The notes under the pieces: generated by a model
What the model was told of the DNA's origin: nothing
The model's input: only the letters and a program-made list of their open reading frames with translations
Databases searched by the model: none
Virus record (IMG/VR): IMGVR_UViG_3300025288_000012
Span: 96,001-160,000 of that record
Source: a virus
DNA: 64,000 bases
Reading direction: 5' to 3' (one strand)
Shown here: piece by piece, positions 27,389-50,167 of the stretch
Position numbering within the stretch: the first letter of the stretch is position 1
Layout: the number at the start of each line of letters is the position of its first letter
Made by a program: the position numbers and the translations under genes

Positions 27389-29228
27389 CATAAACCGAAA
27401 GCCTCAAATTCGATCTGCTCCTCAGCCAGGTAAAAAGTCGACACTTGGCTCTACCTCCAGGCAGAAGTCTGAGTCAGGTAGAATGGAGTCGTTGAGCACA
27501 ATGAGCCCCACAGGCATGCAGAACACGACAGTGTCTTCAAACCCACTGTCTGTTGACTTGTCTCCTATGCTTACAGGCTTTGCCCCGCAGAAAGAAAGTC
27601 AGATGTTCTACCAGTTGTATCGTGACATGTACTACAACGATGCAATTTGTGGGTCAACAGTTGACCTAATGTCCTCAATGCCGTTCAGTGAGTACAGCCT
27701 TGGTGGCGTAAAGGATCTTGGGATCCTTAGGGCGTACACTGAGACGCTTGAGAGACTTAGCCTGCGGTCAATGTTCCCCGAGATTTCTGTTGACTACTTG
27801 GTATTGGGTGTGCACTGCTCTTCGCTTCTGTACTCCAAGGAGCGCAAGGTCTTCATCGACACTATGCCCCATGCTGTGGAAAACATGACTGTGCAGACGC
27901 TGCCCTTCTACAGCCAGGACCCTCTCATAACGGTTAAGTTTCCAAGAGAAGTCCAAAACCTGTTCGCTCCGAAGTCCGGTGAATCCAATAGCCGGATAGA
28001 GCGGTTGCGTTCGCTAGTTGGTAATACTGTCATAGAGAAGATAGCCTCAGGTTCGTTGGAGCTCGACCCACTGAGTACGTTGTATCTTCCGCGTAAGTCA
28101 TTCACTAACACCGACTTTGGAACCTCGTATTTCCGTCGAGTGCTGCCTATATACCTTATAGAAAAGAACCTGTACCGTGGTACGCTAATTGAGTCTGCTA
28201 GGCGTCAACGTGGCATTCTCCACCTTACACTGGGTGACGGTGACACGTGGGAACCTACTATCGCCGATATGGAGTACATGACTGAACTGTTCATGAACGC
28301 TGACAGTGACCCTCTAGGTGCGATAATTGCCACCCGTATGGGTGTTGAGGTTGGTGAACTACGTTCAGGTGGTGAGTTCTGGAAAGTTACTGACTTCGCT
28401 GACTCAGTAGTGTCATACAAGCTCAGAGCACTAGGTGTAAGCGAATCCTTCCTTTCTGGTGATGCCTCGTACAACACTGCCGACAATGGCCTATCTGTGT
28501 TCATCGACCAGATACGGTCTTATCGGGAGATGATGACCCGTAAGCTGTTCTATGATAAGCTGTTCCCACTTGTTGCACTTATCAATGGGTACACACTGAA
28601 CTCTAAAGGTAAGATATCAATCAAGGAGAATTTGCTTGATACGTTGTCTCCTGAAGAGGCTTTGTTCACACTGAACGATGGCTCTAGACTTTTGATACCT
28701 CAAGTGTCTTGGGCTAAAAACCTGAAACCTGAAGGTGACTCGCAGTACATGGAAGTTCTAACCACTCTGGCCGACAAGGGTATTCCTGTACCATTGCGTG
28801 TTCTTGCTGCTGCAGGTGGCCTGAACTTGGAAGAACTAATTCGCCAGAAGGAAGATGACCTTCAGAATCGCAAGTTGCTGTCGGAGTATTCAAAGCTCAT
28901 TGCAGATCTTAGCCCAAAGCCTGCTGAAGGAGGGGACGAAGAAATGGAAGCCTCTGCCACTGCATTGGCTTCAGCGCTTGCTTCCGTAGCACCTGGTCGT
29001 AGGACGAAGTCGGCACTGCTAGCTAGCGGAGGAAGAGTCCCACTGTTGTCTAGAGAGTTTGGTGAGACCGGCGAAATCAAGGACAAGTCAAAGACTGGTA
29101 AGTCCAAGTTCGTTCGGGATCAAAAATCTGCCAACGACCGCATCAACCGTAACATCGCAAAAGCTTTGAGAAACGCAAACTCCAATGGTAAATTTGGAGT
29201 ACAGACTGTACAAAGGAAATCACCGTGA
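27381..29228 (+). CDS. probable portal protein
   Basis: About 600-aa ORF directly downstream of terL and upstream of head genes. Assignment rests mainly on position and size. Confidence 0.6.
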   Translation: MFSINRKPQIRSAPQPGKKSTLGSTSRQKSESGRMESLSTMSPTGMQNTTVSSNPLSVDLSPMLTGFAPQKESQMFYQLYRDMYYNDAICGSTVDLMSSMPFSEYSLGGVKDLGILRAYTETLERLSLRSMFPEISVDYLVLGVHCSSLLYSKERKVFIDTMPHAVENMTVQTLPFYSQDPLITVKFPREVQNLFAPKSGESNSRIERLRSLVGNTVIEKIASGSLELDPLSTLYLPRKSFTNTDFGTSYFRRVLPIYLIEKNLYRGTLIESARRQRGILHLTLGDGDTWEPTIADMEYMTELFMNADSDPLGAIIATRMGVEVGELRSGGEFWKVTDFADSVVSYKLRALGVSESFLSGDASYNTADNGLSVFIDQIRSYREMMTRKLFYDKLFPLVALINGYTLNSKGKISIKENLLDTLSPEEALFTLNDGSRLLIPQVSWAKNLKPEGDSQYMEVLTTLADKGIPVPLRVLAAAGGLNLEELIRQKEDDLQNRKLLSEYSKLIADLSPKPAEGGDEEMEASATALASALASVAPGRRTKSALLASGGRVPLLSREFGETGEIKDKSKTGKSKFVRDQKSANDRINRNIAKALRNANSNGKFGVQTVQRKSP

Positions 29229-29398
29229 AACTAAAGCTTGTCATTTCAATCTCCGCCGAAGACAAGGCGCGTATGGAAAAAATTGATCCTACCTCTACCG
29301 AGCAAGTTGAAGCACCTTCACTTGAAGTTGTTGCATCTTCAAGAAAAGTCCTTCGTAGGAATAGAGGGTACAAACCAAGCTTCAAGCGTGCCCCATGA
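29225..29398 (+). CDS. 57-aa ORF missed by the ORF track (MKLKLVISISAEDK...), carrying the shared N-terminal motif
   Basis: AAAGGA RBS. GTG overlaps the portal stop (GTGA) and its stop overlaps the next ATG (ATGA). Confidence 0.7.
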   Translation: MKLKLVISISAEDKARMEKIDPTSTEQVEAPSLEVVASSRKVLRRNRGYKPSFKRAP

Positions 29399-30237
29399 TT
29401 ATCCAGGAGAAGGTCCTTCGCATGTACGCGGCTGCACGAGGGATGCGAATCAAGAATGCAGCTAGTTCAATAACGCTGCGTACTGGCGATAAGTTCTTTC
29501 TTGTTAGGTCAGCTACTGCTACTTACGTCTCGCTTGACGAAGAGCTGAAACCAAAGTTCAAGCTGGGTGAGTATGCGCTTCAGAAGCTTGAGACAAATTC
29601 AAAGAAGGTAGCAGTAAGATCAAAGGATCCAAAGCTACCTGATGCAGAAGTAGAGATAACTAAGCTGAAACTTGCTCCCAGGTCTAAAAAGCCTGGGATT
29701 CCCTTATCTGTGCTAAAAGAGCGTATTGACAAGGCTATTACTGCACCACCTTATGAGATAGTTTTAGCTCCTCCGGCTCCTTTCTTTACGCCTCGACAGT
29801 TGAAGAAGTTTTGGTCCACTAACAAGGCGAAGTTGCAAATGGGGTTCCGTAAGTCGTTACTTCGTGTCCTAGAAGGTAGGCCAGACGATAGCGCGAGTAA
29901 GATTGAAGTTAAGTTGACAGAGTCGTCTGTCAACGTACAGGCTACTATCTCACTTCCTGGTGATCGTTATGCCATGCTGCGGTATAATGCTACAGCAAAC
30001 GGTAAGTTCCTAGTTATCTTCGCGTCAGTGTCAGTAGAGTCCATTACGAAGAAGCCAGAGCTGGTCTTTAGAACACCTGCTGTTAAAGCCTTCTTCTCTG
30101 AATACTTAAAGATGAAGCCTAAGCTGACTAAGTCCTTCGGTCTCCCAGACGGTGCCACTACTGGTCCTTTCATGATGACCAGCAACGTACTTACACCCTA
30201 CCCTGCAAGGACACGATACTTCGTGACCCGCGTATGA
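29395..30237 (+). CDS. basic hypothetical protein
   Basis: 280-aa Lys-rich ORF coupled to neighbours at both ends. Confidence 0.75.
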   Translation: MIIQEKVLRMYAAARGMRIKNAASSITLRTGDKFFLVRSATATYVSLDEELKPKFKLGEYALQKLETNSKKVAVRSKDPKLPDAEVEITKLKLAPRSKKPGIPLSVLKERIDKAITAPPYEIVLAPPAPFFTPRQLKKFWSTNKAKLQMGFRKSLLRVLEGRPDDSASKIEVKLTESSVNVQATISLPGDRYAMLRYNATANGKFLVIFASVSVESITKKPELVFRTPAVKAFFSEYLKMKPKLTKSFGLPDGATTGPFMMTSNVLTPYPARTRYFVTRV

Positions 30238-30389
30238 TCTACTGTCTGTGCGTACCTCAATACGTACCAGCACCCGAGATACGGTATGTGCCAGTTTCGG
30301 GACCAGTTCCATATTTTGTACCAACACCAGTCGAGGAAATTCCCGGTGTTAAGGTTCCCACAATGTACATCGAAAGTCGCTCCATATGA
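30234..30389 (+). CDS. 51-aa Pro/Val/Tyr-rich ORF missed by the ORF track (MIYCLCVPQYVPAPEIRYVPVSGPVPY...)
   Basis: ATGA overlaps with both the upstream stop and the ligase start, filling the gap exactly. Confidence 0.55.
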   Translation: MIYCLCVPQYVPAPEIRYVPVSGPVPYFVPTPVEEIPGVKVPTMYIESRSI

Positions 30390-32365
30390 AACTCATGATA
30401 GCTTTGGACCAGGTTAGTCAGTCTGCCGCTGTTAAGCTTGACAAACGTGACGTAGCTCGTATCGAGAAGGACCCTGCTGGTCTTGCAGCACAGCTGTATC
30501 TTACTGACCTAGTAGGCATACTCAAGCAGTGCTCTGATCGTTACTACAATGACGGTACTAGCCTGTTGTCAGACAGGGCGTTTGACGCACTAAAGGACGA
30601 GCTGCAGGTAAGAAATCCTGCGCATCCCTTCCTGAATCAAATTGGCGCCCCAGTTGCCAAAGGAAGTCGGAAGGTACCACTACCTTATGCGCTGTTTAGT
30701 CTGGACAAGGTGAAAGCTGATACCGTAGCAAAGTGGACTACCCCTAAGAAGGGTCCTTACGTAGTTTCGGACAAGGAAGACGGGAACTCCTTAGAAATAG
30801 TGTACAAGTCTGGAGGTGTGAGCATCTACACCCGAGGTGATGGAGTTAAAGGGCAGGACGTTACCTTCCTTGCTCCTCATTTGGACATTCCTCAGGCTAT
30901 ACCATCAGGAAAAGTTCTTGCAGTTCGTGCAGAGGCCATAATTCCCAATGCCGCGTTCAAGAAATACTTCACAGGTGCATACCGCAACCCTCGCAATCTT
31001 GTTGCGGGTGCTATGAACAAACGTTCCGTACACGAGTCCCTACCGCACATACACGTCATTGCCTACGAGATCATAGAGCCTCGTATGAAGCCTTCGGCAG
31101 CATTAGCGAAGCTGAAACAATATGGATTCAACGTGGTACCTTACAAGGTGTACAACACACTAAGTGTTGCCATGCTAAGTAAGCTCCTGGCCACTCGCAA
31201 GGCACGTTCTAAGTACGACATTGACGGACTTGTTATTGAACAAGACCAGCTGAACCGTAGGCCTAGTGCAGGCAACAATCCAGGCTACGCAGTCGCGTTC
31301 AAAGAAGCCGATGAAAACCAGATGCACGACACCAAGGTAATTGAAGTGCAGTGGGAAGCCTCAAAGCTTGGAGCACTAAAGCCCGTCCTACGCATCCAAC
31401 CTGTAGAGCTTCCGGGCAACACAATAAACTACGTTACTGGTCACAACGCCTTCTTCATTGAGCATGGATACCGCAGCAAAGACAAGCTGAAGGGAATGCC
31501 CGTTAAACCGATCGGTCCAGGTGCGGTAGTAAAGATCATTCGTAGTGGTGACGTTATACCCCACGTGGTAGAGGTAGTAAAGGGTTGTACCAAGCCTCAG
31601 ATGCCCGACGAGCCATACAAGTATGGTCGCACTGGCATAGACATATACCAGACAGTGACCTCTGATCTAACCAAAGAGAAGCTCATAACTTCGTTCTTCG
31701 TTACAGTAGGTGTGGAGTACATGAAGCTCAACACTGTGCAGAAGCTAGTTCAGAACGGTTTCAATAGCATACCGAAGATCCTTCGTGCTAAAGCAGCCGA
31801 CTTCCTAGTCATACCTGGTTTCAAAGCCACGTTAGCGAACAAGCTTTACGCTGCCATTCAAGCAAAGACACGCGAAGTAGAACTCCACACCTTGATGGAT
31901 GCCTCAGGTGTGTTCGGTGCAGGTCTAGGAGAGAAGCGGCTAAAGCCTCTTATAGAGACCTTCCCCAATATTCTGACCTGGGTTAATCTAAAGCCTTCCT
32001 ATATAGAAGAGCGAGTTAAGACCGTTCGAGGTTTTAACCAGACTGCAGCACAGTTCGCCGTTGGATTCCCGAAGTTTCTGAAATGGCTTGCCACTACTCG
32101 TATCAAGCCTATACTGCCCGCAAAGATCAAAAAGACAGGCACTATCCTGCAAGGTCACACCGTAGTATTCACGGGAATCCGTGTTCCTGACCTGGAAACA
32201 ACCATAATTTCTAATGGTGGAAAGATAGGGTCTGGCGTCAATTCTACGACGACTATTCTGATAGCCAAAGATCCTAATGAGAACAGTGCCAAGCTTAGAA
32301 AAGCAGCTGACCTAGGGATATCCATCATGACCGTGGATAAGTTCAAATCGAAGTTTAAGGTGTAA
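30386..32365 (+). CDS. ligA: NAD+-dependent DNA ligase (Ia, adenylation, OB, HhH and BRCT domains; no Zn finger)
   Basis: Domain Ia YYNDGTSLLSDRAFDAL, motif I KEDG, YTRGDG, RNPRNLVAG, DIDGLVI, IIRSGDVIP and BRCT TVVFTG. No CPxC after the OB fold. Confidence 0.93.
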   Translation: MKLMIALDQVSQSAAVKLDKRDVARIEKDPAGLAAQLYLTDLVGILKQCSDRYYNDGTSLLSDRAFDALKDELQVRNPAHPFLNQIGAPVAKGSRKVPLPYALFSLDKVKADTVAKWTTPKKGPYVVSDKEDGNSLEIVYKSGGVSIYTRGDGVKGQDVTFLAPHLDIPQAIPSGKVLAVRAEAIIPNAAFKKYFTGAYRNPRNLVAGAMNKRSVHESLPHIHVIAYEIIEPRMKPSAALAKLKQYGFNVVPYKVYNTLSVAMLSKLLATRKARSKYDIDGLVIEQDQLNRRPSAGNNPGYAVAFKEADENQMHDTKVIEVQWEASKLGALKPVLRIQPVELPGNTINYVTGHNAFFIEHGYRSKDKLKGMPVKPIGPGAVVKIIRSGDVIPHVVEVVKGCTKPQMPDEPYKYGRTGIDIYQTVTSDLTKEKLITSFFVTVGVEYMKLNTVQKLVQNGFNSIPKILRAKAADFLVIPGFKATLANKLYAAIQAKTREVELHTLMDASGVFGAGLGEKRLKPLIETFPNILTWVNLKPSYIEERVKTVRGFNQTAAQFAVGFPKFLKWLATTRIKPILPAKIKKTGTILQGHTVVFTGIRVPDLETTIISNGGKIGSGVNSTTTILIAKDPNENSAKLRKAADLGISIMTVDKFKSKFKV

Positions 32366-32367
32366 CC

Positions 32368-32931
32368 ATGAAAATCAAAGTGTTCATGTCAACTTCTGAG
32401 GAAATGACACTAGCTAGTGCATACCGCAAGTTTTTAGCGGCTAGTAAGCTTGCTGCTGGTGCTCTTAAAAGCCCTACATTGGCAGACCAGTACCATGTAG
32501 CGATAGTGAGAGACCTATACCATTTCTTGACTGACAACGACTTTACCTGTGATGTTCTGCTGGGAATGGGGTTCAAGAAACCTCTGGTAAATGCAGCCAA
32601 GAGCATAACGGAAGACCTTGAGGATCATGGCTACTCTGTAGTTGCGGACCACTTGGAACACGCTGTGGTGAAGGTCAATCAGCTCATTATTGACCCTTCG
32701 TATTCCCGACTGGGTACGTCGTATGAGACGCGGGATAACTACCCTGTACGTGACTTCTATAACTATTGGGAGTTAGTAAAGCCTATCAAGCACTTGCTTG
32801 ACTTGACCCCGCTGGCACTCGCAGACCGAATCAAAAACATGCAAGAACCAGCTCATGCCTCTACGCTTCTGAAGAGCAAAAAGAAGAAAGCTAAGCGTAC
32901 ACTAGTCATCAACATTCAGAAGTCAAACTAA
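32368..32931 (+). CDS. hypothetical protein with shared N-terminal motif (MKIKVFMSTS)
   Basis: 187-aa ORF 2 nt after the ligase stop. Confidence 0.75.
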   Translation: MKIKVFMSTSEEMTLASAYRKFLAASKLAAGALKSPTLADQYHVAIVRDLYHFLTDNDFTCDVLLGMGFKKPLVNAAKSITEDLEDHGYSVVADHLEHAVVKVNQLIIDPSYSRLGTSYETRDNYPVRDFYNYWELVKPIKHLLDLTPLALADRIKNMQEPAHASTLLKSKKKKAKRTLVINIQKSN

Positions 32932-32949
32932 TCATCATCCGAGGCTCGC

Positions 32950-34578
32950 ATGAAACTTTTCTTCAACAGTCTATCAGCGTCAGACGAAAGCGTAGATGCT
33001 TTCCTGTATGTACTTATAGTCATCATACTTGCGGTAAACAAGAACGACGTACAGGAGTTCACTAAAGGTCTTACGGCTAAAATGCACAAGGCAAATGACC
33101 TTCTGCGTCAGCACGGTGCTCACAAGTCTACCGTAAAGTACTTCAACAAGTTCCTTCTTACCAAGAGTCTTTCTGATGCCGAGGCTGCGGAACTGGGTAA
33201 GACACTGAAGACCTTCAAGGTGTCATTCACCCGTGACGTTTCTATTGACTTGTCCCACTTAGACTTGTTGAATGCTTGTATCCAGAACCTATCAACTGAT
33301 TCTGAAGCTGCATGGCGTAAGATAGAGCGAGATGTCAAGATCCTCAACAACGCTGACCTTACTTCGGTCTTCACAACTGAGTCAACCATTGAAGTACAGG
33401 GTATCACCTATATTACGGCAGCATCCCGGATAAAGCCGCTAGTAAAGAAACTCAGTGGTAAGCTGGACACAGTGTTCCTTACTATTGCAGAGGCTCAGGC
33501 AGCCCGAGCTGCTCAACCTGAAGTGTACGCGGAGTACACTAAGCTCCTTAAGGTTATAAACCAGACCGTCAAGCACGAGATCTTTACGTTTGTTCGCAAA
33601 AAGAAGCAATCACTTGTGGACGTAGACGTAGTACGGTCGCATCTCGAATCGCTGAAGATGCCAAACAACTTACCCCGGGGTTTCGTGGGTGGTCAAGTAG
33701 ACGAATCAGGCAAGTTCTACACGGCCGAAGGACGCATGCTGGACAAAGTCCCAAGTGGTATGGTTGTTATGAATCCAAAGTATGATCCTGCTACGGATAA
33801 CACTTATGCCTTCACCACCAGTGAAGGCATACGCTACCGTACTCAGACGTTCTTGTCTAACAACAAGAAGGCTCGGCACAGCGTAGTGCGCGAGTTCATG
33901 CAGAATGAAGAAGAGCATCGTACCAGGTGGCGCCTAGACCTGACGAAAAAAGGTTCCGAAGAACAGGTACTTGCAGCCATGGTTGAGCTACTCTACACAA
34001 CTTCTGCTCGTATTGGTGGAAAGGACAACGCTACTGCAGGTGAACCCACCTATGGTCTGAGTACCTTGCAAGTTGCATGGGTAAAGATGACCCCAACAAA
34101 GATAATCTTGGACTACACGGGAAAGAAACTGGCAAACCAGTACGTCGAGTACAAGGTTAACACACCGACTGCGAAGAAGGTGCAGGAGATCATCAGAGCT
34201 CAATTGGATCGTAAGACTCCCGAGTCCATGCTGTTTACGTTCAATCATCGCCATTTGAGCAGACAACGGGTCGCTGCCTACCTAAAGACATTGGGCATAC
34301 AGCTTACTCCTCACTCCTTCCGCCGCATTACAGGAACGAAACTAGCCGAGTCAATATTGGCCAAGGCTCCTTTCAAAGCTTCTGCTTATCCAAAGCAGGC
34401 TGAAGTTGAGAAGTGGTTCAAAGATGCCGCACTAAAGATCGGTGAAGCATTGCATCACCGTAGTGGGGAGAAGGTTACATCCGCTACTGCCATCAAGTCT
34501 TATATTGACCCACAAGTCATCGAAGACTATTTCGTCGGCCTAGGACTTCGTCGTCCCAAATGGCTACCCACCAAGTAA
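32950..34578 (+). CDS. type IB DNA topoisomerase-like protein (tyrosine-recombinase fold) with long N-terminal extension
   Basis: Catalytic pentad in order: SARIGG (Arg codon 34009), YGLSTL, YTGKK, LF..., VAAYLK, HSFRR, ALHH and KSYIDP (Tyr codon 34501). Spacing matches poxviral/bacterial Topo IB. Confidence 0.8.
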   Translation: MKLFFNSLSASDESVDAFLYVLIVIILAVNKNDVQEFTKGLTAKMHKANDLLRQHGAHKSTVKYFNKFLLTKSLSDAEAAELGKTLKTFKVSFTRDVSIDLSHLDLLNACIQNLSTDSEAAWRKIERDVKILNNADLTSVFTTESTIEVQGITYITAASRIKPLVKKLSGKLDTVFLTIAEAQAARAAQPEVYAEYTKLLKVINQTVKHEIFTFVRKKKQSLVDVDVVRSHLESLKMPNNLPRGFVGGQVDESGKFYTAEGRMLDKVPSGMVVMNPKYDPATDNTYAFTTSEGIRYRTQTFLSNNKKARHSVVREFMQNEEEHRTRWRLDLTKKGSEEQVLAAMVELLYTTSARIGGKDNATAGEPTYGLSTLQVAWVKMTPTKIILDYTGKKLANQYVEYKVNTPTAKKVQEIIRAQLDRKTPESMLFTFNHRHLSRQRVAAYLKTLGIQLTPHSFRRITGTKLAESILAKAPFKASAYPKQAEVEKWFKDAALKIGEALHHRSGEKVTSATAIKSYIDPQVIEDYFVGLGLRRPKWLPTK

Positions 34579-35042
34579 ATCTAAAGGAAATACCATGAAA
34601 GTCCTAGTTAGTTTGTCTACCTTTGTTTTTGCTATGAACGATCCTGATATAGAGGTAATGAAAAACCCAAAAGCAACCACAGCAGCGCTTATGAAGGGCA
34701 TTCAAAGCAAAAATCCCATGGTGAGAAGGGCAGTCATGCGAAACCCCAATGCAACTGCCGAAATCATATCCAAGGGCCTGACTGACCAGTACGCAGTAGT
34801 TCGTGCAGCTGCCTTTAAGAGTCCCAAGGTCACAGTTGCACAACTGCTCAAAGGCATTAAGGACAAGGACAAGGCCGTTCGTCTAGCCGTTGTTAGTAAC
34901 CCTAAAGCCACTACCGAGATTCTGGAGCAAGGTTCCACTGACAAGGGCGCACGAGTCAAAAAGGAGTCTTTGCAAAAGTTGAAAAGCACTAAAAAGTAAT
35001 CTTTGCCTACCCATCAAGTAAATCTAAAGGAAATACCATGAA
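34564..35042 (+). repeat. 36-bp direct repeats (34564-34599 and 35007-35042) flanking the LRV-repeat gene
   Basis: CTACCCA(C/T)CAAGTAAATCTAAAGGAAATACCATGAA, one mismatch. Confidence 0.9.
34595..34999 (+). CDS. LRV/HEAT-like repeat protein with shared N-terminal motif (MKVLVSLST)
   Basis: About four 24-aa repeats of the type NPxAT.ei...g..D....VR.A. Confidence 0.75.
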   Translation: MKVLVSLSTFVFAMNDPDIEVMKNPKATTAALMKGIQSKNPMVRRAVMRNPNATAEIISKGLTDQYAVVRAAAFKSPKVTVAQLLKGIKDKDKAVRLAVVSNPKATTEILEQGSTDKGARVKKESLQKLKSTKK

Positions 35043-35118
35043 GTCTGGACGCGGTGACTGGAAACGCCAGAAGAGCAAGCTCCTCTGATTGCAGCCACTC
35101 TTAACCTAAGGAACCCTC

Positions 35119-35340
35119 ATGAAAGCCATCATTCATACCAGTCTGTCCCGCAAGCGTTCGCACAAGTCTCCCCGGTCTAGCTTCATGTCTATGTTGATGA
35201 CCAAGCTGGGTGGAGACCCGGGTAACGCAATTGCCGACGCCTTCGTTAAACCTGATCCCGAGAAGTTCAAAGAACTGATGGAGGAAGTCGTGAACTCCAT
35301 GGCCAAGTCCATCGGTCGTACGCCGCCTAAGGTTGAATAA
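35119..35340 (+). CDS. small protein with shared N-terminal motif (MKAIIHTSLS)
   Basis: TAAGGA RBS, 73 aa. Confidence 0.7.
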   Translation: MKAIIHTSLSRKRSHKSPRSSFMSMLMTKLGGDPGNAIADAFVKPDPEKFKELMEEVVNSMAKSIGRTPPKVE

Positions 35341-35393
35341 GATGAAGAAGCACAATGATTTCAGTTAACCTTATATAACTTTTGGCCTGGGAC

Positions 35394-35675
35394 ATGAAAC
35401 TTTGGATTTCAACCTCTAGTGTGCAACTAATACCGAGCTCACCCTCGGTATTAACCTTGTTCCACGTACCCAAGTCCTTGCCGTTTCAAGGCTTGCCCTT
35501 CGTTGAAGGAGTAGCTGTATTTGTTCCCCACCAGGTGAACAAGAAGGTACCGGATCACGTCAAGAAGTTGCTCTTCAGCATAAAACCTATTGGCTGGGAC
35601 TACGCACCAGAGGGTTTGACACACCATCAGCTTCCTTACAATGCACGTCTGGGCGTTGTCGAGTTACCACCGTGA
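35394..35675 (+). CDS. hypothetical protein with shared N-terminal motif (MKLWISTSS)
   Basis: GGGA before ATG 35394. The motif match supports this start. Confidence 0.6.
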   Translation: MKLWISTSSVQLIPSSPSVLTLFHVPKSLPFQGLPFVEGVAVFVPHQVNKKVPDHVKKLLFSIKPIGWDYAPEGLTHHQLPYNARLGVVELPP

Positions 35676-36084
35676 AGAAGAAGCAGTAAGTCTTCTGGAA
35701 AAGAACGGGTTCAAGATCAATAAGGTCGAATTGACTGGTCCTCAGTTTCTTGAGCTTAACAAGCCACCAGTGTTTGACAAAGTACCTATTCAACCTGGTC
35801 AAGTAGTGCTGAATCCTAGACTACTGTACCCACGTGCTAGGTTCTTGTGGAGCGCTCACAACAAGAAATTCACTGAGTGGGAACGAACATTCGTTTACAA
35901 CATAGGTGGTCTTCTGAAGGCAGGTAGATCGTTGTCACCTAAGCAGCTCGAACATCTGAATAAGTTGTTCGACAAGTACAAGGTTGCATTAGATGCTGTT
36001 GCCTCAGATGCTCTTGACGCTAGTCTTAAGAAACTGGATCTCTCAAGAGAAGATCTTGCCAAACACCTGCACAAAAGGGTATAG
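35641..36084 (+). CDS. hypothetical protein
   Basis: 147-aa ORF overlapping the upstream ORF by 35 nt. Confidence 0.6.
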   Translation: MHVWALSSYHREEEAVSLLEKNGFKINKVELTGPQFLELNKPPVFDKVPIQPGQVVLNPRLLYPRARFLWSAHNKKFTEWERTFVYNIGGLLKAGRSLSPKQLEHLNKLFDKYKVALDAVASDALDASLKKLDLSREDLAKHLHKRV

Positions 36085-36174
36085 AAATCAAACTTCTACG
36101 TACTTCAAAGTTGTTTGACAAAGGCGTAGCAGCAAATAACATAATTTTTGACAATCGAAAACGTGGGAGTAACC

Positions 36175-36570
36175 ATGAAACTAAAGGTAGCACTGGCAAG
36201 CGTTGGCTTGCCCTCTCCAGAGGTTATGCGTATGTATAACCACATTGTGCCTAAAGGGTTTGAATTTCAACTCATTAACTTCGAGGATACAGTTGAAACT
36301 GGAGAGAACATTCGTGGTTACTTCTACATTAACAGCACTCCAACAGCAGAAGTACTTGGACTGGTGCAGAAAGTTATCATTGCCGCAAAGGCACTTGGCT
36401 TCACTACAGTTTCACGTAAGGTAGGCCTGAATCAGATACTGTACACCTGGTACAAGTCAGATATGGGTAAGTCGTATAGACTGGAACTGTGGCAAAATCT
36501 TAGACAGGATGGGTTGAGTGAACTAGCTCTGTCTCTCGAAGAGTACGTAACCAAACCAAAAGGTATCTAG
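36175..36570 (+). CDS. hypothetical protein with shared N-terminal motif (MKLKVALAS)
   Basis: GGGAG RBS before ATG 36175, downstream of TAATTTT. Confidence 0.7.
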   Translation: MKLKVALASVGLPSPEVMRMYNHIVPKGFEFQLINFEDTVETGENIRGYFYINSTPTAEVLGLVQKVIIAAKALGFTTVSRKVGLNQILYTWYKSDMGKSYRLELWQNLRQDGLSELALSLEEYVTKPKGI

Positions 36571-36572
36571 TC

Positions 36573-37316
36573 ATGGACTTTTCTTCTCAATCCTTTGAAA
36601 TTCGTGGTGGTCCCGTTGTAGAGCTGAACAAGAACAAGTTCGAGGACGTAGTTACGAAGCTCTCCGGTGATTCTGCCCACAGCATTGAGGCCAATACATG
36701 GCTTCCGTTCGCTGCGAAGGAATACAACCTCAGTCCTGATATTCGCGATTACGTACTGGTTCCTGTTCCGGTAATCATCACCGAAATGCCCAACACCAAT
36801 GGAGACTCTGTCACTATCAAGGAGCTGCTGAAGTTCAACCCCGAAATGGGTATGCAGGCATTCAAGACAGCTCGTGGTAAACCGTGTCACCACGAACACG
36901 ACAATCGTGACTACACCAAGGCCAAAGGCGTTATCCTTGATGCCTTCATTCGTCCCATCCGTAGATTCGGTAACAACCGCTACTACAAAGTCATTGAACT
37001 GATGGGTTACGATCGGTCGAAGGATCCGATGCTCGTGAACTCCATTCTAAGTGGTGAGAACAACGCCTACTCTGTTGGATTCTATTACAAGTCCTACACC
37101 TGCTCCGTGTGCGGAAAGACCGTTGGGCAGACCAAGTTCGGTTCTTCTCAGGCGTGCGACCACACTTTCCTGCGTCGCAAACCCTACGCGATGAACGATG
37201 GACGCCTAGCCTATCGTCAATGCCACGACATCCTATTCTTTGAGACGTCAGTTGTAGCTGACCCCGCCTACAAATGTGCAATAGGGCCCCATGTAATGAA
37301 TCCTTCAATTTTGTAA
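36573..37316 (+). CDS. probable prohead (capsid maturation) protease, HK97/assemblin-like fold with Zn insert
   Basis: PNTNGD, GKPCHHEHD (candidate His), AYSVGF (candidate Ser), CSVC..C..C and terminal FETSVVADPA. Upstream of scaffold and capsid genes. Confidence 0.65.
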   Translation: MDFSSQSFEIRGGPVVELNKNKFEDVVTKLSGDSAHSIEANTWLPFAAKEYNLSPDIRDYVLVPVPVIITEMPNTNGDSVTIKELLKFNPEMGMQAFKTARGKPCHHEHDNRDYTKAKGVILDAFIRPIRRFGNNRYYKVIELMGYDRSKDPMLVNSILSGENNAYSVGFYYKSYTCSVCGKTVGQTKFGSSQACDHTFLRRKPYAMNDGRLAYRQCHDILFFETSVVADPAYKCAIGPHVMNPSIL

Positions 37317-38677
37317 AAGGAAAGACCATGAAAACAATTATCAGTATGTATCAGTCCACAAGTGCTGTAGTTCAATCTTAGGAAATCCCCATGAAAATCT
37401 TTATCGCCCTAGCGGCAACAGCCCACTTAAAGGGGGATAGAGTCGTCGTAAAGTTCGGTAATAACCAGTGGTACACTGGGTCTGTCGCCTCTATTGGGAA
37501 GAAAATCACAGTTCTTTTTGACGATGGTGAGAAACACGCTTATGAACTAGGTGACACTTCTGTCAAAGGAATTACCTCGAAGCGTAAGTCTAAGGCAGCA
37601 ATCACTAACGCTGACGCGAAGCTGCTGTACTCTGCACCCGTAGCCACACCAAAGGCACGTACTCCAAGAGCTGCTACCCCGGCCAAAACTGCTGAGCCTA
37701 AGGTACGCACACCTAAGGCAGCTGCCAAGCCTGTTGCCTCAACGCCAGAGGCACCTAAGGCAAACTCTTTCGTTGGATCAGTTGTCAAAAGTACGTTCGG
37801 TCCCATTGTCGTACTCTCCAAGAAGTATGGCCGTAAGTACGCTGAGTTCAAGTGGTCAAAACTTGATAACTCTGGAACGGGATGGCTGAAGTTCCCAGTG
37901 GATGAACGTGACGCTTCGCATTTTGTACGCTTCCCCTTCATTCGTGATGCAACACCTAAGGAAATGTCTGGTGGTCGTCAGAAACTTAGCGAGCGCTATA
38001 CCAGGATAAGCAATGCTCTGCAAGAATCTCGGGACAAGATAAAAAGCCAGAAGATCCAACCAGGTGACGTAGTAAAGGTTACGTACTCTAGCAGTGTAGC
38101 CAATGAGGCCGTTCTAGAAGTTAACTACAGAACGGGTAAGGTTGCTATAGTTCGTAGCTCCGAAGGTGCAGCTTCGTACTACAGCAAGAAGCGCTACCTT
38201 CCTATTCGTCTCTGTGAGAAGATCGCTGACGGTGGTGGAAAGTTCGACCCCAACAATCCCATTTACGCCAAGTACAATATCTACATACCGCAATTCTACA
38301 AGTCAGGAAACACAGTCGCACCCAATCGTAATAAAGCCCGGCACAAGTTGTTTGGACTTAGCTCGAACTTCAACTTTAGCACCTACATGCCACCCGACGT
38401 AGTTGTTGCACTTGAAAAGTCAATAAAAGCAGCAAACGAAGTAGGTAATGCCTCAGCACGAACGTATGCTAACGCTATGGCACAATCTGCCGAAGAATAC
38501 GGAAAGAATGGGTTGTCTCTACAGATATCCTATATGCTGCTTAACTTAGGTTCGTGGAAGGGTGAAGAAGCTCGTGCCGCGAAGAAGATACTTAACAAGT
38601 GGGCAAAGGCCAATTAGGCTACTACGTTCAAAGGAAAGACCATGAAAACAGTTATCAGTATGTATCAGCCCACAAGT
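37316..38677 (+). repeat. 48-bp direct repeats (37316-37363 and 38630-38677) flanking the 408-aa gene
   Basis: AAAGGAAAGACCATGAAAACA(A/G)TTATCAGTATGTATCAG(T/C)CCACAAGT, two mismatches. Confidence 0.9.
37391..38617 (+). CDS. multi-domain basic protein with Tudor/SH3-like barrel(s) and shared N-terminal motif (MKIFIALAA)
   Basis: GDRVVVKFGNNQWYTGSVASIGKKITVLFDDGE, a Pro/Ala/Lys linker, and KOW-like IQPGDVVKV. Confidence 0.7.
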   Translation: MKIFIALAATAHLKGDRVVVKFGNNQWYTGSVASIGKKITVLFDDGEKHAYELGDTSVKGITSKRKSKAAITNADAKLLYSAPVATPKARTPRAATPAKTAEPKVRTPKAAAKPVASTPEAPKANSFVGSVVKSTFGPIVVLSKKYGRKYAEFKWSKLDNSGTGWLKFPVDERDASHFVRFPFIRDATPKEMSGGRQKLSERYTRISNALQESRDKIKSQKIQPGDVVKVTYSSSVANEAVLEVNYRTGKVAIVRSSEGAASYYSKKRYLPIRLCEKIADGGGKFDPNNPIYAKYNIYIPQFYKSGNTVAPNRNKARHKLFGLSSNFNFSTYMPPDVVVALEKSIKAANEVGNASARTYANAMAQSAEEYGKNGLSLQISYMLLNLGSWKGEEARAAKKILNKWAKAN

Positions 38678-38719
38678 TCTGTTACGTGCCCGCAGATTCA
38701 CTACGTAAGTGGAATCCCA

Positions 38720-39157
38720 ATGAAAGTTTTAATCAGTCTCAGTGCTAGTAGTCAAGAGTGGTTTGATGGGTTGCCCAAAAGAGCACAGAAGGAATACCTC
38801 ATCAACAACCCCCGCAGTAAGTTTGGTACCGTACTTGCGGCAGCTCCCAAAAAGCTTGCGGCAGCTCCCAAAAAGCTTGCTCTGCTACCGGTACCAAAAC
38901 TTCGAGACCTATGGAGACCAAGCGGTGAATTTTCGGATGCTGCTAATGAACGGGCTCGTAAAAGTGCACTCGACGAGATCTCTAAGATTAAGGCGGAGAA
39001 CGAAAAACGTAAAGCAACAAATACTAGTACCAGAGCAGTACGTTCCCAATTTCGTACCGAAAATGCCTTAAATGATAAGACTATAGCCACGTTGTCCAAA
39101 AAGCTATATGCCACACTCGGTCCCTCTGTAAGAGACACTCATGGGAAGGCCCTTTGA
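38720..39157 (+). CDS. basic protein with shared N-terminal motif (MKVLISLSA) and WFxxLxxxxQxEYLxxNPxSK segment
   Basis: In-frame upstream ATG 38642 derives from the repeat module. Contains a 21-bp tandem duplication (LAAAPKK x2). Confidence 0.7.
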   Translation: MKVLISLSASSQEWFDGLPKRAQKEYLINNPRSKFGTVLAAAPKKLAAAPKKLALLPVPKLRDLWRPSGEFSDAANERARKSALDEISKIKAENEKRKATNTSTRAVRSQFRTENALNDKTIATLSKKLYATLGPSVRDTHGKAL

Positions 39158-39611
39158 ACTTAAAAAAGGGTGCGAAGGCAGTACCACTGGCTGAGCGGGC
39201 CGCAAAGTCTCCTCTGCTGACTAAAAATCTTCTTGTTCACACGTCCGAGTTGGCTTACGCTAACAAGTCGATTCCACTGGATGAAAGAAAACAAATCCGT
39301 GCACAAATCCGCAACCTTACAGAGTACGGCACAAGAGAACAGCAGACTCAATTCTTGAGCAAGTTTTTGGCTGCCCACCAACGTGTAACACCCTCCGCGT
39401 CTAAGACACGCCCATCAAGGCGGAGGGTGTAGCCACTGAGGCACTGGAAGAAAAGGAGGCCAAAGCCCTGAAGCCTGCTAAGTCTGTTGCCGCACGGGAT
39501 GCCCGGGAGATGTATGTTAGCCTCGCATGCTTTGCCCACTATAAGTTGCGCCTGAAGTACGAAACTGGCCCTGTGGTGCTTAAAAAGCTCAAGGTCACTA
39601 TAGAAAATTGA
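39154..39611 (+). pseudogene. possible frameshifted gene: 92-aa ORF (39154-39432) plus a start-less -1 frame continuing to 39611
   Basis: TTG start with GGAAGG RBS. The -1 frame is open 39405-39611 and encodes similarly basic helical sequence. Confidence 0.35.
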
Positions 39612-39638
39612 GCAAAGACATCGGTCGGTAATCCTATG

Positions 39639-39664
39639 AGGACTCAGAGTACAGAGTCCTTTTG
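39639..39664 (+). terminator. intrinsic terminator
   Basis: AGGACTC-agagtaca-GAGTCCT followed by TTTT. Confidence 0.65.
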
Positions 39665-39968
39665 AAGAGTTTAGTAACTAAGGAAACACCATGAAAACCA
39701 TAGTTAGCAAGTCCCTAAAAGCTATGTCTGCGGGTAAGAAATCACCCACGTGACGCTACTCGTCTTGAAGACATACGGGGTGAGATGGGTGAACTTCTAA
39801 GTGAGGCACGCCCGATAGCCAAAAAGGTGGGTGGCCACACGTATGCCGCGGCCTCCTCTTATTGGATATAGCACACATCGAATCTGCCTTGGGTGCAATG
39901 AGACTTCGAGTCGTCCATCTGCTACTACAATGCAGGACACCCTCAACGAACTACTAGAAGGCCTCAAA

Positions 39969-40448
39969 ATGAAAATCTCTGTTTCTCTATCTGCAGGTGT
40001 GACACTAGACTTCGAGGATCACGACAAGTCGGCAGCACCTATCTTCCACTACGGTGTTCGAGATGGTGTTCGCGTATTCTTCAACAACAACTTCCTGCTC
40101 CGTGCAGAAGGTCCGGTGTCAAAGACTTTCTCTATCCATCATAGAGCAGACTTGATGAAGAACAGGTCATTTGAGCCCTTAGGCACGCTAGACCTAGCGC
40201 AAAACCGGGTGTACAAGATTGAGTTGTTGCCGATCTGGGCGGGCATGGGAATAGCAGAGGAACTTGTAGTCAGTCTTCTGAAGACGTTTAACGAACCCCT
40301 AGCCTTATCACGCCATAGTTGCCTGCAATCAGTACGCAACAACCTAGGCGTGGATGAGTACTTATGGTTAGACAACCTGTCTGAACTGGAAATCCGGGCA
40401 GTTAGCTGTAGGACGAAAGAACGTGTATCTAATTCGTGGTCCGTGTAG
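39969..40448 (+). CDS. hypothetical protein with shared N-terminal motif (MKISVSLSA); possible GNAT-like fold
   Basis: ATG 39969 gives a perfect motif match. LLPIWAGMGIAEELV resembles GNAT motif A. Confidence 0.6.
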   Translation: MKISVSLSAGVTLDFEDHDKSAAPIFHYGVRDGVRVFFNNNFLLRAEGPVSKTFSIHHRADLMKNRSFEPLGTLDLAQNRVYKIELLPIWAGMGIAEELVVSLLKTFNEPLALSRHSCLQSVRNNLGVDEYLWLDNLSELEIRAVSCRTKERVSNSWSV

Positions 40449-40645: not shown

Positions 40646-42763
40646 ATGTCTGATAGTAAATCAGTCCCCTTCCACGGCATTCTTGCAGTTGGAAACTCCA
40701 AAGACGAGGCCGTCAATCGCTACAAGATGGCGGCTGTCGGTAAAGGAGTTTCTGCCTACACGGATAAAGCCCATTCACTGTCCTTCGTTACCAACGCTAG
40801 CAGTTTATCTGAAATGTTCAATCCTCAGACCGGTGACCTGGACCTGGAAGAAACCCCCGATGTTCTGCAAAGTCTGGAATTCGCGTCCCAGTCTAACTCT
40901 GACAACCGCGAAGTTAACTACTTCGAGTGCCGTAGCGGATGTGGTGCTCACATCGTCTACGATTCTTCCGAGCTAGTGAAACATTGCCCGGTCTGTACCT
41001 CGGCAGTTATCGACGATGAATCCGAAGGCGATTCCGAAGGTGAGCCCGACGGTGACGAAGAATCCGATGACGACATGGAGTCCGATGACGACATGGAGTC
41101 CGATGAAGATGCAATCGATCTCGAATCCGATTCCGAAGACGAATCCGACGGTGAGTCCGACGGTGACGACATGGAGTCCGATGACGACATGGAGTCTGAT
41201 GAAGACGACCTGGACTCAGGTGACGACGAGGAATCTACTTCTTCTGACGACGAATCTGAAGGTGACGACTCCGAAGGGGATGATGCCGAAGACGACTCCG
41301 AAGGGGATGATGCCGAAGAAGAGACCGACGAGAACGAGCCCGTAGTTATTGCTGCTTCGAGCAAAGCCGAAGCCGTGGAACTGTACCGCAAGGAACGCGC
41401 TGGTGTTATCCACGCAAGTGCGGTTGAAGTCAACTACATGGTGTGTTCGTCTGCTACTTGCGGAGCTCACGTTATTTTCGAGTCCAGCGACGTAACCGAA
41501 TGCCCCATTTGCGCCTCCGCTCTGCAGGAAGCTGACGAGTCCAAAGACGAAGCCGATCTTGAAGTCGACACTGGCTCCGATGCTGAAGACGGTGATGAAG
41601 ACGACATGGCCTCCGATGCTGAAGACGGTGATGAAGACGACATGGCCTCCGATGCTGAAGACGGTGATGAAGACGACATGGCCTCCGATGCTGAAGACGG
41701 TGATGAAGACGACTCTAACGAGCCATTGGCCGTAGCTGCCTCAACCCGTGCTGAAGCTGAAGCCCTTTACCAGCAGGCTCGTGCCGGTGTTATCCACGCA
41801 AGTGCAGTTGAAGTCAACTACATGGTGTGTTCGTCCTCCGATTGCGGTGCCCACGTCATCTATGAATCCGCTGAAGCTATTGCCTGCCCGGTATGTGCTT
41901 CCGCTCTTGTAGAGCCCGAAGGTGAAACTGAAGCTGCTGCTCCGGTCGGTACGAAGACTGTAGTAGTTGACGAGCTTGCCAACATCGACGATAGTGCCGA
42001 TGCTTCGCACGAAAAGCTTGATGTGTCGTACTCCTCCAGCGTTGCCGGTTCTCCCATATGGACTGCGTACTATGCGGGCAAGCCTGTTGCCGTTGCTCGT
42101 AAGAGCGAGTCTGGCCACCAGGACATCTTCGACGAAGCTACCTTCGGTAATGCAGTTCTCGCCTCTGCTCGTCACGCTGGTGTTGTCAATACCCTGCGCG
42201 AAATGGGCTTCAAGGCTATTGCAAATGACGTAAACCTCGAGCGTTACGTCGAGCAGCAGATCGAAGAGCAAGTTGCTGAGGAACGTGCCGCAATGGCATC
42301 CACCCAGAAACAGTTCCAGGATCGTTTCAAGGCGGCTCTTGCAACTGCGTCCATCGGTATGACCCGTGGCTTCTTCGTCGGTCAAACCAATCCCCTGAAA
42401 GACAACCTGTTTAACGCCCTTAGCTCTGCGGGTGTTCGCAACCCTGATGTACTGTTGTTCAATGCGTTCAAGTCTGCTGCTGACGCATATCACAACGCTC
42501 TCTTCTCCAAGGCCAGTGAGATTATGGACAAGCCGGTTGAAGTTCAAGAAGGCCTAGCAAAGGCTGTACTTGAAATGAATCACACGTCTATGAGCGCAAC
42601 GAACCCTGTGGAAGATCGTTTAGTCTCCATGGGAGTTCCTGCAACTGCTGCTGCGGTTTCTCATGTCCCGGATGATAACCTTGAGTCCGTAAGCTCAAGT
42701 GATGGTGGGTTTGGCGCAAAAGCTGCGGCTGTTGTGTCCGGTCTCGGCCGTCGCATTCGTTAA
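40646..42763 (+). CDS. acidic scaffold-like head protein with three Zn-ribbon repeats
   Basis: AGGAG RBS before ATG 40646. Three NYxxC...CGAH....CPxC modules separated by D/E/S-rich tracts. Directly upstream of the capsid genes. Confidence 0.65.
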   Translation: MSDSKSVPFHGILAVGNSKDEAVNRYKMAAVGKGVSAYTDKAHSLSFVTNASSLSEMFNPQTGDLDLEETPDVLQSLEFASQSNSDNREVNYFECRSGCGAHIVYDSSELVKHCPVCTSAVIDDESEGDSEGEPDGDEESDDDMESDDDMESDEDAIDLESDSEDESDGESDGDDMESDDDMESDEDDLDSGDDEESTSSDDESEGDDSEGDDAEDDSEGDDAEEETDENEPVVIAASSKAEAVELYRKERAGVIHASAVEVNYMVCSSATCGAHVIFESSDVTECPICASALQEADESKDEADLEVDTGSDAEDGDEDDMASDAEDGDEDDMASDAEDGDEDDMASDAEDGDEDDSNEPLAVAASTRAEAEALYQQARAGVIHASAVEVNYMVCSSSDCGAHVIYESAEAIACPVCASALVEPEGETEAAAPVGTKTVVVDELANIDDSADASHEKLDVSYSSSVAGSPIWTAYYAGKPVAVARKSESGHQDIFDEATFGNAVLASARHAGVVNTLREMGFKAIANDVNLERYVEQQIEEQVAEERAAMASTQKQFQDRFKAALATASIGMTRGFFVGQTNPLKDNLFNALSSAGVRNPDVLLFNAFKSAADAYHNALFSKASEIMDKPVEVQEGLAKAVLEMNHTSMSATNPVEDRLVSMGVPATAAAVSHVPDDNLESVSSSDGGFGAKAAAVVSGLGRRIR
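41575..41713 (+). repeat. 36-bp coding tandem repeat, ~3.9 copies (SDAEDGDEDDMA)
   Basis: Exact units of CTCCGATGCTGAAGACGGTGATGAAGACGACATGGC. Confidence 0.9.
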
Positions 42764-42799: not shown

Positions 42800-43480
42800 A
42801 TGTTGCAATTGCGTGAAACCCGAGTAGTTTACACTGGTCACGAAGCTGTTGCCACCGGCGTTGTTATCAACGAAGAAGGCATTGCCCTGGCCTACGTCAA
42901 GGAAAACGGCGCTACCAAAGTTCAGCCCTGTACCGGCGTTGCTGGTGAAATCTTTGCGGGCGTTAGCTTGTCCCGTAATGCTCCCCCGGCTGCTCTTCCC
43001 ATGGTCAATGAAGGCATCATCGCTGCTGACGGCACTTTCGAGATGGGCCGTGTACCCAATGCAGGTCAACTGCTGGTCAAGGTCGGCGGTACTGCGTTCA
43101 CCATCGTTACCACTGCTCCTTCCGTAGAAGAAGTGAAGGTTACTGGTTCGACTCTGCAATTCCAAGTTGCTGAAGCAGGCAATCAGGTCTTCGCTCAGAT
43201 GGTCTACACACCCACGGTCATCGAAGCCCGCACCATCGTTGGTAACATCCCGGCCGCAGGTATCCCCCAGACCGACACCATCGGTACTCTGAAGGATGCG
43301 ACGTTCGGTACCAACTACTTCGACGCTGCTGTTGACTGGTCTGATGCACTGTACGTCAAGCTTGGCCCGAATGGCACACTGACCAAAGGTACCGCTGCCG
43401 ATGGCATCCCCAATGCTATCGTCAAAAACTCGCCCAGCCCGGCCAGCCCGTTCCTGGTTGTCAGCATCCGAGTTGCCTGA
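42800..43480 (+). CDS. probable head decoration/stabilising protein
   Basis: TAAGGAG RBS, high-expression codon bias, beta-rich sequence, immediately before the MCP gene. Confidence 0.6.
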   Translation: MLQLRETRVVYTGHEAVATGVVINEEGIALAYVKENGATKVQPCTGVAGEIFAGVSLSRNAPPAALPMVNEGIIAADGTFEMGRVPNAGQLLVKVGGTAFTIVTTAPSVEEVKVTGSTLQFQVAEAGNQVFAQMVYTPTVIEARTIVGNIPAAGIPQTDTIGTLKDATFGTNYFDAAVDWSDALYVKLGPNGTLTKGTAADGIPNAIVKNSPSPASPFLVVSIRVA

Positions 43481-43517
43481 TCCCAGTAAACCTCACTCAA
43501 TTTAGGAGTTCAATACC

Positions 43518-44633: not shown

Positions 44634-44667
44634 CATGTGTAAAGGCAGGATGGCATGTAAGTAACAA

Positions 44668-44699
44668 AAATGGGACACTTCGGTGTCCCATTTGCTTTT
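44668..44699 (+). terminator. intrinsic terminator (UUCG loop)
   Basis: AAATGGGACAC-TTCG-GTGTCCCATTT followed by GCTTTT. Confidence 0.85.
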
Positions 44700-44754
44700 G
44701 GTGCCTTCATTGTAATTTTATCGTTACACAAAACGCCTTAACTAGGAGCCTTTC

Positions 44755-45162: not shown

Positions 45163-45163
45163 A

Positions 45164-46175: not shown

Positions 46176-46205
46176 GCATTTAACGATTTCCTAAAGGAGC
46201 TCATA

Positions 46206-47765: not shown

Positions 47766-47774
47766 GGACTAGTC

Positions 47775-48185: not shown

Positions 48186-48188
48186 CAC

Positions 48189-49215: not shown

Positions 49216-49235
49216 ACGAATTTTTTAATGAGGAG

Positions 49236-50027: not shown

Positions 50028-50167
50028 TTCCGGAGCAAGAGTTACTTGACATGCAGTATGAACTGGCTAGGCATAGGAACATACCGCCAGACATGAACAT
50101 GCCAAGTAAAAGTCTGCTGTACTTTTACTCGAAGTACAAAAGAGATCGTGAAGAACAATCTCCCTAG
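50015..50167 (+). CDS. -1 frameshift extension of the chaperone (G/GT-type)
   Basis: Slippery T TTT TTC at 50015-50021 lies one codon before the stop. The -1 frame is open to 50167 (PIIPEQELLDMQYELARH...). Confidence 0.6.
   Translation, partial: FFPIIPEQELLDMQYELARHRNIPPDMNMPSKSLLYFYSKYKRDREEQSP

Follow-up and report, generated by a model that had tools for sequence, protein, structure and literature searches.

Why should a run of otherwise unrelated genes, lying between the portal gene and the scaffold-like gene of a large phage, begin with nearly the same handful of residues? The question is raised by a 64,000-nucleotide (nt) stretch, here called the window, that covers bases 96,001–160,000 of the IMG/VR record IMGVR_UViG_3300025288_000012 – a single viral contig of 190,918 bp, ~78% complete according to CheckV. 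A sequence-only reading of the window had listed 14 open reading frames (ORFs) with this common start and proposed that it loads a diverse set of enzymes into the phage head. By analogy with phage T4, the answer that we favour is that the N-terminal leader is probably – with considerable room left for doubt – a prohead-targeting tag resembling the T4 capsid targeting sequence (CTS), carried by a swappable set of cargo proteins.

All 14 listed N-termini are indeed encoded where they had been placed, but not all of them belong to genes: 11 head intact ORFs (at 29225, with a GTG start, and at 30386, 32368, 32950, 34595, 35119, 35394, 36175, 37391, 38720 and 39969), and the other three (37328, 38642 and 39691) are remnants. 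Between the portal and scaffold genes, the leader is thus present on 11 of the 15 intact ORFs, and in the whole genome on about seventeen proteins that are otherwise unrelated. The consensus of 41 distinct leaders is M1 K2 [L/I]3 x4 [I/V]5 S6 [L/T/M]7 S8 [A/S/T]9, with conserved columns stopping at position 9; a variant with one extra residue (MSK...) is also found.

Starts of the form MK-hydrophobic are common among bacterial and phage proteins – the glycosyltransferase of the Pseudomonas phage Lu11, for instance, opens with MKIAVYAIA, an ordinary Rossmann strand – and the resemblance might be trivial, reflecting chance or simply each protein's own first β-strand. A strict regular expression (start codon, K, [LIVT], x, [LIVF], [SA], [LIMT], [SA]) was therefore run over every ATG, GTG and TTG in the six frames of the whole 190.9-kb genome, with thirty 3-mer shuffles as the control. 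It matched 11 times, whereas the shuffles averaged 0.37 matches and never exceeded 2; all 11 matches start at ATG, open ORFs of 72–633 amino acids (aa) and fall inside just two clusters. A core heptad, [LIVM]x[IV]S[LIMT]S[ASTG], searched with no start codon required, occurs six times in the ~60,600 residues of called proteins, each time immediately after a start codon and never inside a protein. When a position matrix built from the listed N-termini was scored at all start codons of the genome, the training set came out on top, and strong matches from outside it appeared on the minus strand at 43.9–50.5 kb of the genome.

The leader also looks like an addition to the folds that it precedes. 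In an Acb1-like phosphodiesterase from the second cluster, the Pfam match begins only at residue 21, and the AlphaFold2 (AF2) model, with a mean predicted local distance difference test score (pLDDT) of 87, has residues 1–12 below 50. The PHROG profile of the DNA ligase in the array begins at residue 38, and the ligases of Lu11, of the Pseudomonas phage PaBG and of the Erwinia phage Y3 start at conserved ligase sequence, without an N-terminal extension. Among relatives (introduced below), L010 encodes the C-terminal domain of the 37391 protein as an ORF of its own, in which the leader immediately precedes the domain, and its orthologue of the 39969 protein has a much longer linker between leader and domain. 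Such comparisons indicate that the tag is portable, attached to unrelated proteins whose domains are re-partnered between relatives. With the leader disordered in the Acb1-like model and outside the Pfam and PHROG domain boundaries, with Ser-x-Ser kept across unrelated folds, and with the counts given above, chance or an ordinary first strand is excluded, the probability left to it being negligible; the claim that otherwise unrelated ORFs share a start is confirmed, the signal being N-terminal only, outside the folds and far above chance. A Sec or lipoprotein signal peptide was also considered and rejected: the former needs ~10 or more residues of hydrophobic core and the latter a Cys-containing lipobox, whereas the leader offers only ~7 residues alternating between hydrophobic and Ser, and no Cys.

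Every gene in the flagged region lies on the + strand, in the order large terminase, portal, array, scaffold-like protein, virion structural protein, major capsid protein and a hairpin. The array itself, apart from the protease gene described later, consists of the following (window coordinates):

29225–29398, + strand: 57-aa leader ORF (MKLKLVISISA), its GTG start overlapping the portal stop codon
29395–30237, + strand: 280-aa ORF without leader; homologue in L010 likewise leaderless
30386–32365, + strand: NAD-dependent DNA ligase, 659 aa, with the leader on an N-terminal extension of ~30 aa; Pfam adenylation, OB and BRCT domains
32368–32931, + strand: 187-aa leader protein; homologues in L010, L014 and L018
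32950–34578, + strand: type IB topoisomerase-like protein, 542 aa, with a leader one residue longer (MKLFFNSLSA); PF01028, E 3e-18
34595–34999, + strand: 134-aa HEAT/LRV-repeat protein with leader; PF02985, PF13646; strict match
35119–35340, + strand: 73-aa leader protein, weaker variant MKAIIHTSLS; homologues in L009, L011, L014 and L015
35394–35675, + strand: 93-aa leader ORF; strict match
35641–36084, + strand: 147-aa ORF without leader
36175–36570, + strand: 131-aa leader protein; strict match
37316–37381, + strand: remnant, with a ribosome-binding site and a 17-codon leader-like ORF (MKTIISM...) starting at 37328
37391–38617, + strand: 408-aa leader protein, made up of leader, Tudor/chromo-like 'GDRVVV' domain, basic linker and C-terminal domain; strict match
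38630–39157, + strand: 145-aa leader protein (start codon at 38720); upstream, in the same frame, lies a second copy of the remnant block, with its start codon at 38642
39154–39432, + strand: 92-aa ORF without leader, TTG start
39691–39968, + strand: frameshifted remnant of a leader gene (start 39691), intact in L009 (start 9966) by three-frame translation
39969–40448, + strand: 159-aa leader protein; strict match

The tagged cargo within the window thus comprises a LigA-type ligase, a type IB topoisomerase, a HEAT-repeat protein, a Tudor/chromo-like protein and seven proteins of unknown family. The ligase has the full set of LigA-type features (adenylation, OB and BRCT domains, and a lysine, K130, within KxDG), and the tyrosine in the C-terminal SYIDP of the topoisomerase-like protein is, judging by its position, the likely active-site residue. 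Topoisomerase orthologues retain the leader (MKIYFTSLS in L010, MSKVMVSLS in L015), and the L009 orthologue of the 37391 protein gives a weak chromo-like Pfam match. No match was found in Pfam, PHROGs or NCBIfam for the proteins at 32368, 36175, 37391, 38720, 39969, 29395, 35641 and 39154.

Parts of the array appear eroded or rearranged. The leader-bearing ORF at 35394 and the leaderless one at 35641 overlap by 35 nt in different frames, and the pair (35394–36084) may be one gene split by a frameshift. The 38720 gene contains an exact 21-nt tandem duplication (38834–38875) encoding two copies of a seven-residue unit rich in Ala, Pro and Lys. The remnant block at 37316 includes a 53-nt repeat, 94% identical to 38630–38682, and a 39-nt intergenic block comprising a ribosome-binding site and ATGAA is found in 95% identical copies at 34561–34599 and 35004–35042 (+ strand); the latter copy heads an ORF of only ~16 codons and is probably another eroded start of a cargo gene.

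Might such shared 5' ends be a nucleic-acid feature, either a translation-initiation region or a boundary at which cassettes recombine? A strong AAAGGAAA ribosome-binding site together with an ATG AAA start is seen in many leader genes, some boundaries are, as just described, repeated as DNA (39–53 nt, 94–95% identical), and the 30 nt that follow the protease gene recur in L003/L009, where an endonuclease-like insert and a second copy of the protease 3' end lie next to them. The insert (L003/L009 3092–5955) carries an endonuclease-like gene (617 aa, with DUF723 and CapR-like matches) placed after the protease gene, and the distal end of the insert carries a second copy of the last 24 protease codons and of the 30-nt block after them; this arrangement reads as the footprint of a mobile-element insertion into the cargo array and shows that cassettes move at these junctions. 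The leader itself, however, follows a different rule. In a set of 35 leaders, drawn from this genome and from two relatives, AGY codons account for 13 of the Ser6 positions and TCN codons for 11, while Leu7 is specified by both CTN and TTR, and Ser8 by both classes of Ser codon; most instances show little or no DNA identity beyond ATG AAA, and the amino-acid pattern is kept in phages whose portal is only 57% identical. As the Ser and Leu codons vary freely and the DNA does not, for the most part, match past the first two codons, the constraint acts on the amino-acid pattern – that is, the leader is, by its codon usage, constrained as a peptide – and a purely nucleic-acid origin of the shared starts is very improbable. 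The nine residues alternate between an inward face (L3, I5, L7, A9) and an outward one (K2, S6, S8), which fits an amphipathic β-strand.

The sequence-only reading had placed the tagged genes around the prohead protease gene and found no clear match among early or baseplate genes. Within the window both statements are true; genome-wide, the picture is incomplete, for a second array exists outside it:

43386–50464 of the genome, − strand: second cluster of 5–6 leader genes, downstream of a head-tail connector gene and on the same strand as it
43386–43895 of the genome, − strand: Acb1-like 2H cyclic-nucleotide phosphodiesterase (PF23474, 64.9 bits against a cut-off of 27)

Besides the Acb1-like phosphodiesterase, this cluster encodes a PcfJ-like protein of 633 aa, a KMPT-N protein and small unknowns, and includes an MSK-variant leader (MSKEIISLSA); for three of its proteins, NCBIfam gave no match. 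Both 2H motifs (H-x-T/S) of the Acb1-like protein are in place, HITV (residue 54) and HVTL (residue 126), and in Foldseek its model matches 9q2g/9q2y, a phage phosphodiesterase, at E 1e-11 and Acb1 itself (7t26) at 4e-8. The top structural match, the BCSR5 phosphodiesterase, comes from an unrelated 70-kb phage and is uninformative on packaging. The two clusters form one functional class, because in relatives the homologues of the Acb1-like and PcfJ-like proteins are encoded beside the protease gene or in the head array, mostly with leader-like N-termini.

These relatives – two or three viral contigs and 24 metagenomic loci – were gathered by protease and portal scans, their proteases being 37–96% identical to the one here. 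Leader genes on the + strand around the protease gene number 11 in L009, five in L010, four in L011, three each in L014 and L019 and two in L021, with a single one each in L013, L015, L017 and L023; they are rare where protease identity is below ~50%. The leader loci vary in content between related phages: some relatives carry extra cargo missing from this genome (e.g. a 770-aa LRV/HEAT protein), a PcfJ-like homologue lies within the L011 head array, and Acb1-like homologues adjoin the protease gene in L019, L020, L022 and L023 and are also present in L014, L016 and L018. Most of these Acb1-like homologues have a leader-like N-terminus followed by a conserved PYTG..G.Y domain start. The ligase and topoisomerase orthologues retain the leader even where portal identity is only 57%.

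Among cultured phages, Lu11 has only degenerate versions of the leader, and in P. putida Pori-4 a leader-like start is confined to the Tudor-like gene after the protease gene. PaBG carries a version of its own, M-x(0-2)-IKINLxEA or a close form, on gp83, gp219, gp220, gp221 and the LigT-like gp228; this variant ends in L-x-E-A, unlike the Glu-less leader here. A LigT/Acb1-like gene lies two genes past the PaBG protease gene. A regular expression of the PaBG type also picked out an unannotated 78-codon ORF (MRIKINLNEA), between the topoisomerase I gene and gp83:

L002 15951–16187, + strand (PaBG record about 55,970–56,206, − strand): unannotated PaBG ORF

One of the PaBG proteins with this leader, gp83, is among the 14 proteins identified by mass spectrometry from purified virions, a list restricted to 14 Coomassie-visible bands (PMC7412058, Table 1); its presence there lends capsid loading indirect support. 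Two virion proteins of unknown function, gp261 and gp263, are encoded in a tail module and are uninformative on the leader. For the structural proteome of Lu11, a literature search gave nothing relevant, and the GenBank record is without proteomic notes.

What surrounds the tagged genes bears directly on what the tag may do. In the middle of the array lies the gene that had been taken for a prohead protease, and beyond its end a scaffold-like gene:

36573–37316, + strand: prohead maturation protease, without leader (phrog_18299, head maturation protease family, E 2e-81)
40646–42763, + strand: scaffold-like head protein (phrog_20988, E 4e-75)

Searching the PDB and Pfam with the protease sequence, even at E values as high as 10, gave nothing useful, and the protein was placed by fold comparison alone. 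For the AF2 model, built from 23 homologues with a pLDDT of 77, the best Foldseek match is T4 gp21 (5jbl; probability 0.95), structural re-alignment (VIA) to 5jbl_B gives Z 9.8 with a root-mean-square deviation of 2.6 Å over 134/164 residues, and the next-best entries, herpesvirus assemblins, reach Z 5.6. His109 and Ser167 are invariant among the homologues. The model thus predicts a T4 gp21 (assemblin) fold, which bears out the assignment of this gene as a prohead protease. The scaffold-like protein is built of three modules, each a strand-helix followed by a four-Cys zinc ribbon, with long acidic tandem repeats between them and a conserved C-terminal domain, and its PHROG label 'ATPase' looks like a misnomer. 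In one mixed run of complex prediction, a 36-residue leader alignment was combined with the protease and with the N-terminal module and C-terminal domain of the scaffold; the scores were 0.32, 0.02 and 0.03, which point to no receptor and count neither for nor against binding. As for the specificity of the protease, the PaBG capsid protein sheds ~20% of its mass during maturation (PMC7412058), and the capsid proteins of the clade keep Glu residues near position 80–86, the expected end of a propeptide of ~20%; this conservation suggests that the protease of this clade may be Glu-directed, like gp21.

The clustering of tagged genes around a protease gene admits a reading in which the tag is not an address at all but a recognition or processing handle – for the gp21-like protease or for a modifier acting on Ser-x-Ser – that works as a zymogen-type propeptide or a leader in the style of ribosomally synthesised and post-translationally modified peptides, with the proteins remaining cytoplasmic. 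Radical-SAM genes elsewhere in this genome would suit such a reading, as would the glycosyltransferase in the equivalent array of Lu11, PaBG and Y3. (In PaBG, at 172–184 kb, as in Lu11 and Y3, a ligase and a glycosyltransferase are the conserved neighbours of the protease gene.) However, the leaderless array genes here and in L009 and L010 include no modifying enzyme recognisable by Pfam or NCBIfam, many of these neighbours being family-less; the only consistently co-occurring genes are those for portal, protease, scaffold and capsid protein; and the tag has no fixed residue for a Glu-directed cut. A handle of this kind is decidedly unlikely.

Prohead targeting, by contrast, is rated most likely because the anatomy that can be read from sequence matches that of T4. 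There, a short N-terminal leader (the CTS of IPI, IPII, IPIII and Alt) is likewise the sole feature common to unrelated proteins, the ip loci of T-even phages are likewise variable clusters that differ between relatives, and a gp21-fold prohead protease is likewise paired with a separate scaffold protein; anti-defence functions are likely among the cargo of both. That tagged genes sit among head-assembly genes, following the T4 precedent, makes capsid loading the most likely function. The likeness does not extend to the leader sequence, for MKTYQEFIAE of T4 has only M-K in common with the leader here, nor to the lineage, which is that of Lu11 and PaBG rather than T4-like, nor to cargo size: the set here includes large enzymes (the 659-aa LigA, the 542-aa topoisomerase IB and the 633-aa PcfJ-like protein, joined in a relative by the 770-aa LRV/HEAT protein) and not small proteins alone. 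The CTS of T4, 10–20 residues long, directs packaging into the prohead core (PMC5694885), and Ip1–3, which have only this N-terminal leader in common, are injected anti-restriction proteins (PMC12373910).

On this model of prohead targeting, the tagged proteins would be made late, together with the portal, protease, scaffold and capsid protein; the exposed leader strand would capture them on the assembling prohead core, as the CTS does for IPI–III and Alt in T4; the cargo would stay in the head while the gp21-like protease clears the scaffold; and it would exit with the DNA at infection.

Other systems show parts of the same logic. In phage P1, the first 30 residues of DarB suffice to package this 250-kDa enzyme (PMC9024508), and here too an N-terminal stretch would direct a large enzyme into the capsid, to be delivered along with the DNA; Dar is an anti-defence system; the Dar proteins, however, lack a consensus leader and are loaded as an ordered chain (PMC9024508), as opposed to one consensus tag on many proteins. 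In phiKZ and SPN3US – large phages, as here, with a T4-related protease (gp175/gp245-type) that cuts the propeptides of head and ejection proteins – many proteins lie inside the head and their N-terminal regions are thought to target the prohead; yet these propeptides are often >100 residues long, share no consensus and end in A/S/G-x-Glu (PMC5694885), unlike the leader here. The cargo-loading peptides of encapsulins are likewise short and extended, alternate small and hydrophobic residues and recruit diverse enzymes into the interior of a shell with the HK97 fold. They mostly stand at the C terminus, however, and make direct contact with the shell protein.

Several observations weigh against the targeting model. 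A fixed cleavage site was sought after the leader, and no residue is conserved past position 9; T4-type leaders end in the gp21 cut motif, hydrophobic-x-Glu (Leu/Ile-x-Glu), whereas the consensus here is Ser-rich and has no Glu. A first Glu falls within 20 residues in ~10/16 leader proteins, which is not above chance, and a mild acidity at positions 13–17 is likewise not different from chance; as a fixed Glu is lacking, a cut, if made, would have to lie at varying sites further downstream. In the more distant relatives Erwinia Y3 and P. putida Pori-4 the leader has not expanded, and PaBG gp83, for all its presence in virions, is not homologous to the leader proteins here and carries a diverged leader. 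As to the ligase, its location within the head module is an ancestral trait, seen also in Lu11, PaBG and Y3, so that position alone is no evidence of packaging, and it is the only DNA ligase found in this ~78%-complete record, for which reason it probably also acts outside the capsid, in replication. The earlier idea of a signal analogous to, but different from, that of T4 survives as the best available model for an N-terminal, head-gene-linked signal, minus the Glu-ending cut site of the T4 type.

A ligase and a topoisomerase would be expected at replicating or packaging DNA, all the more so where the ligase is seemingly the sole one, and an amphipathic β-strand could dock on many partners. 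The tag might accordingly address its proteins to another late site or partner – a chaperone or unfoldase, a membrane assembly site, or a DNA-packaging or replication factory – without their being virion-borne; the single mixed complex prediction gave no receptor. Yet small proteins of no enzymatic family predominate among those tagged, as in the ip loci of T4; the anti-CBASS-type enzyme (CBASS being the cyclic-oligonucleotide-based anti-phage signalling system) and the PcfJ-like protein would gain most from being present at DNA entry; PaBG gp83 is in virions; and the genes sit in head modules, not in replication modules. Another destination is on balance unlikely.

A bolder form of prohead targeting, in which a Glu-less, nine-residue β-strand tag loads whole enzymes, with no fixed-site cut, and the phage arrives with pre-made LigA and topoisomerase IB, ready to seal and relax DNA, and with an equally pre-made anti-CBASS Acb1-like phosphodiesterase, is conceivable by analogy but doubtful in its entirety. 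A virion-delivered Acb1 would, to our knowledge, be the first.

The remaining features of the head-gene block, in window coordinates, place the phage and delimit the array:

21447–27080, + strand: large terminase ORF, 1877 aa
27381–29228, + strand: portal protein, the upstream boundary of the array (phrog_16240, E 7e-207)
42800–43480, + strand: virion structural protein, homologue of PaBG gp81 (phrog_16710)
43518–44633, + strand: major capsid protein (phrog_2522)
44668–44693, + strand: strong terminator-like hairpin with an 11-bp stem, closing the head-gene block after the capsid gene

The major capsid protein shares 58–61% identity with its counterparts in PaBG and Lu11, both jumbo phages of Pseudomonas, and ~49% with those of a group of Erwinia jumbo phages, and PaBG gp81 is present in virions (PMC7412058). 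The hairpin is the sole strong one in the block, the other matches being weak and no more frequent than in shuffles. The large terminase, 1877 aa long here against 733 aa in L004, apparently contains three inteins – inserts that start with Cys and end in VHN before C, T or S – and two of the three have LAGLIDADG-like blocks.

The principle of a capsid targeting sequence goes back to T4; what sets this case apart is a distinct leader, the lineage that carries it, and a cargo that differs in size and kind. If the prohead-targeting model is correct, the leader would provide a simple sequence rule by which the virion-delivered 'first-strike' proteome of an uncultured phage lineage could be read from its genomes, with ~17 candidate injected proteins in this phage, mostly of unknown function and likely anti-defence or takeover factors. 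Enzymes that degrade signals, Acb1 among them, could then be delivered ready-made instead of being expressed once the DNA has entered, which would alter the view of when CBASS is evaded. A second, unrelated packaging tag would also become available for engineering phages of Pseudomonas-type hosts to deliver proteins.

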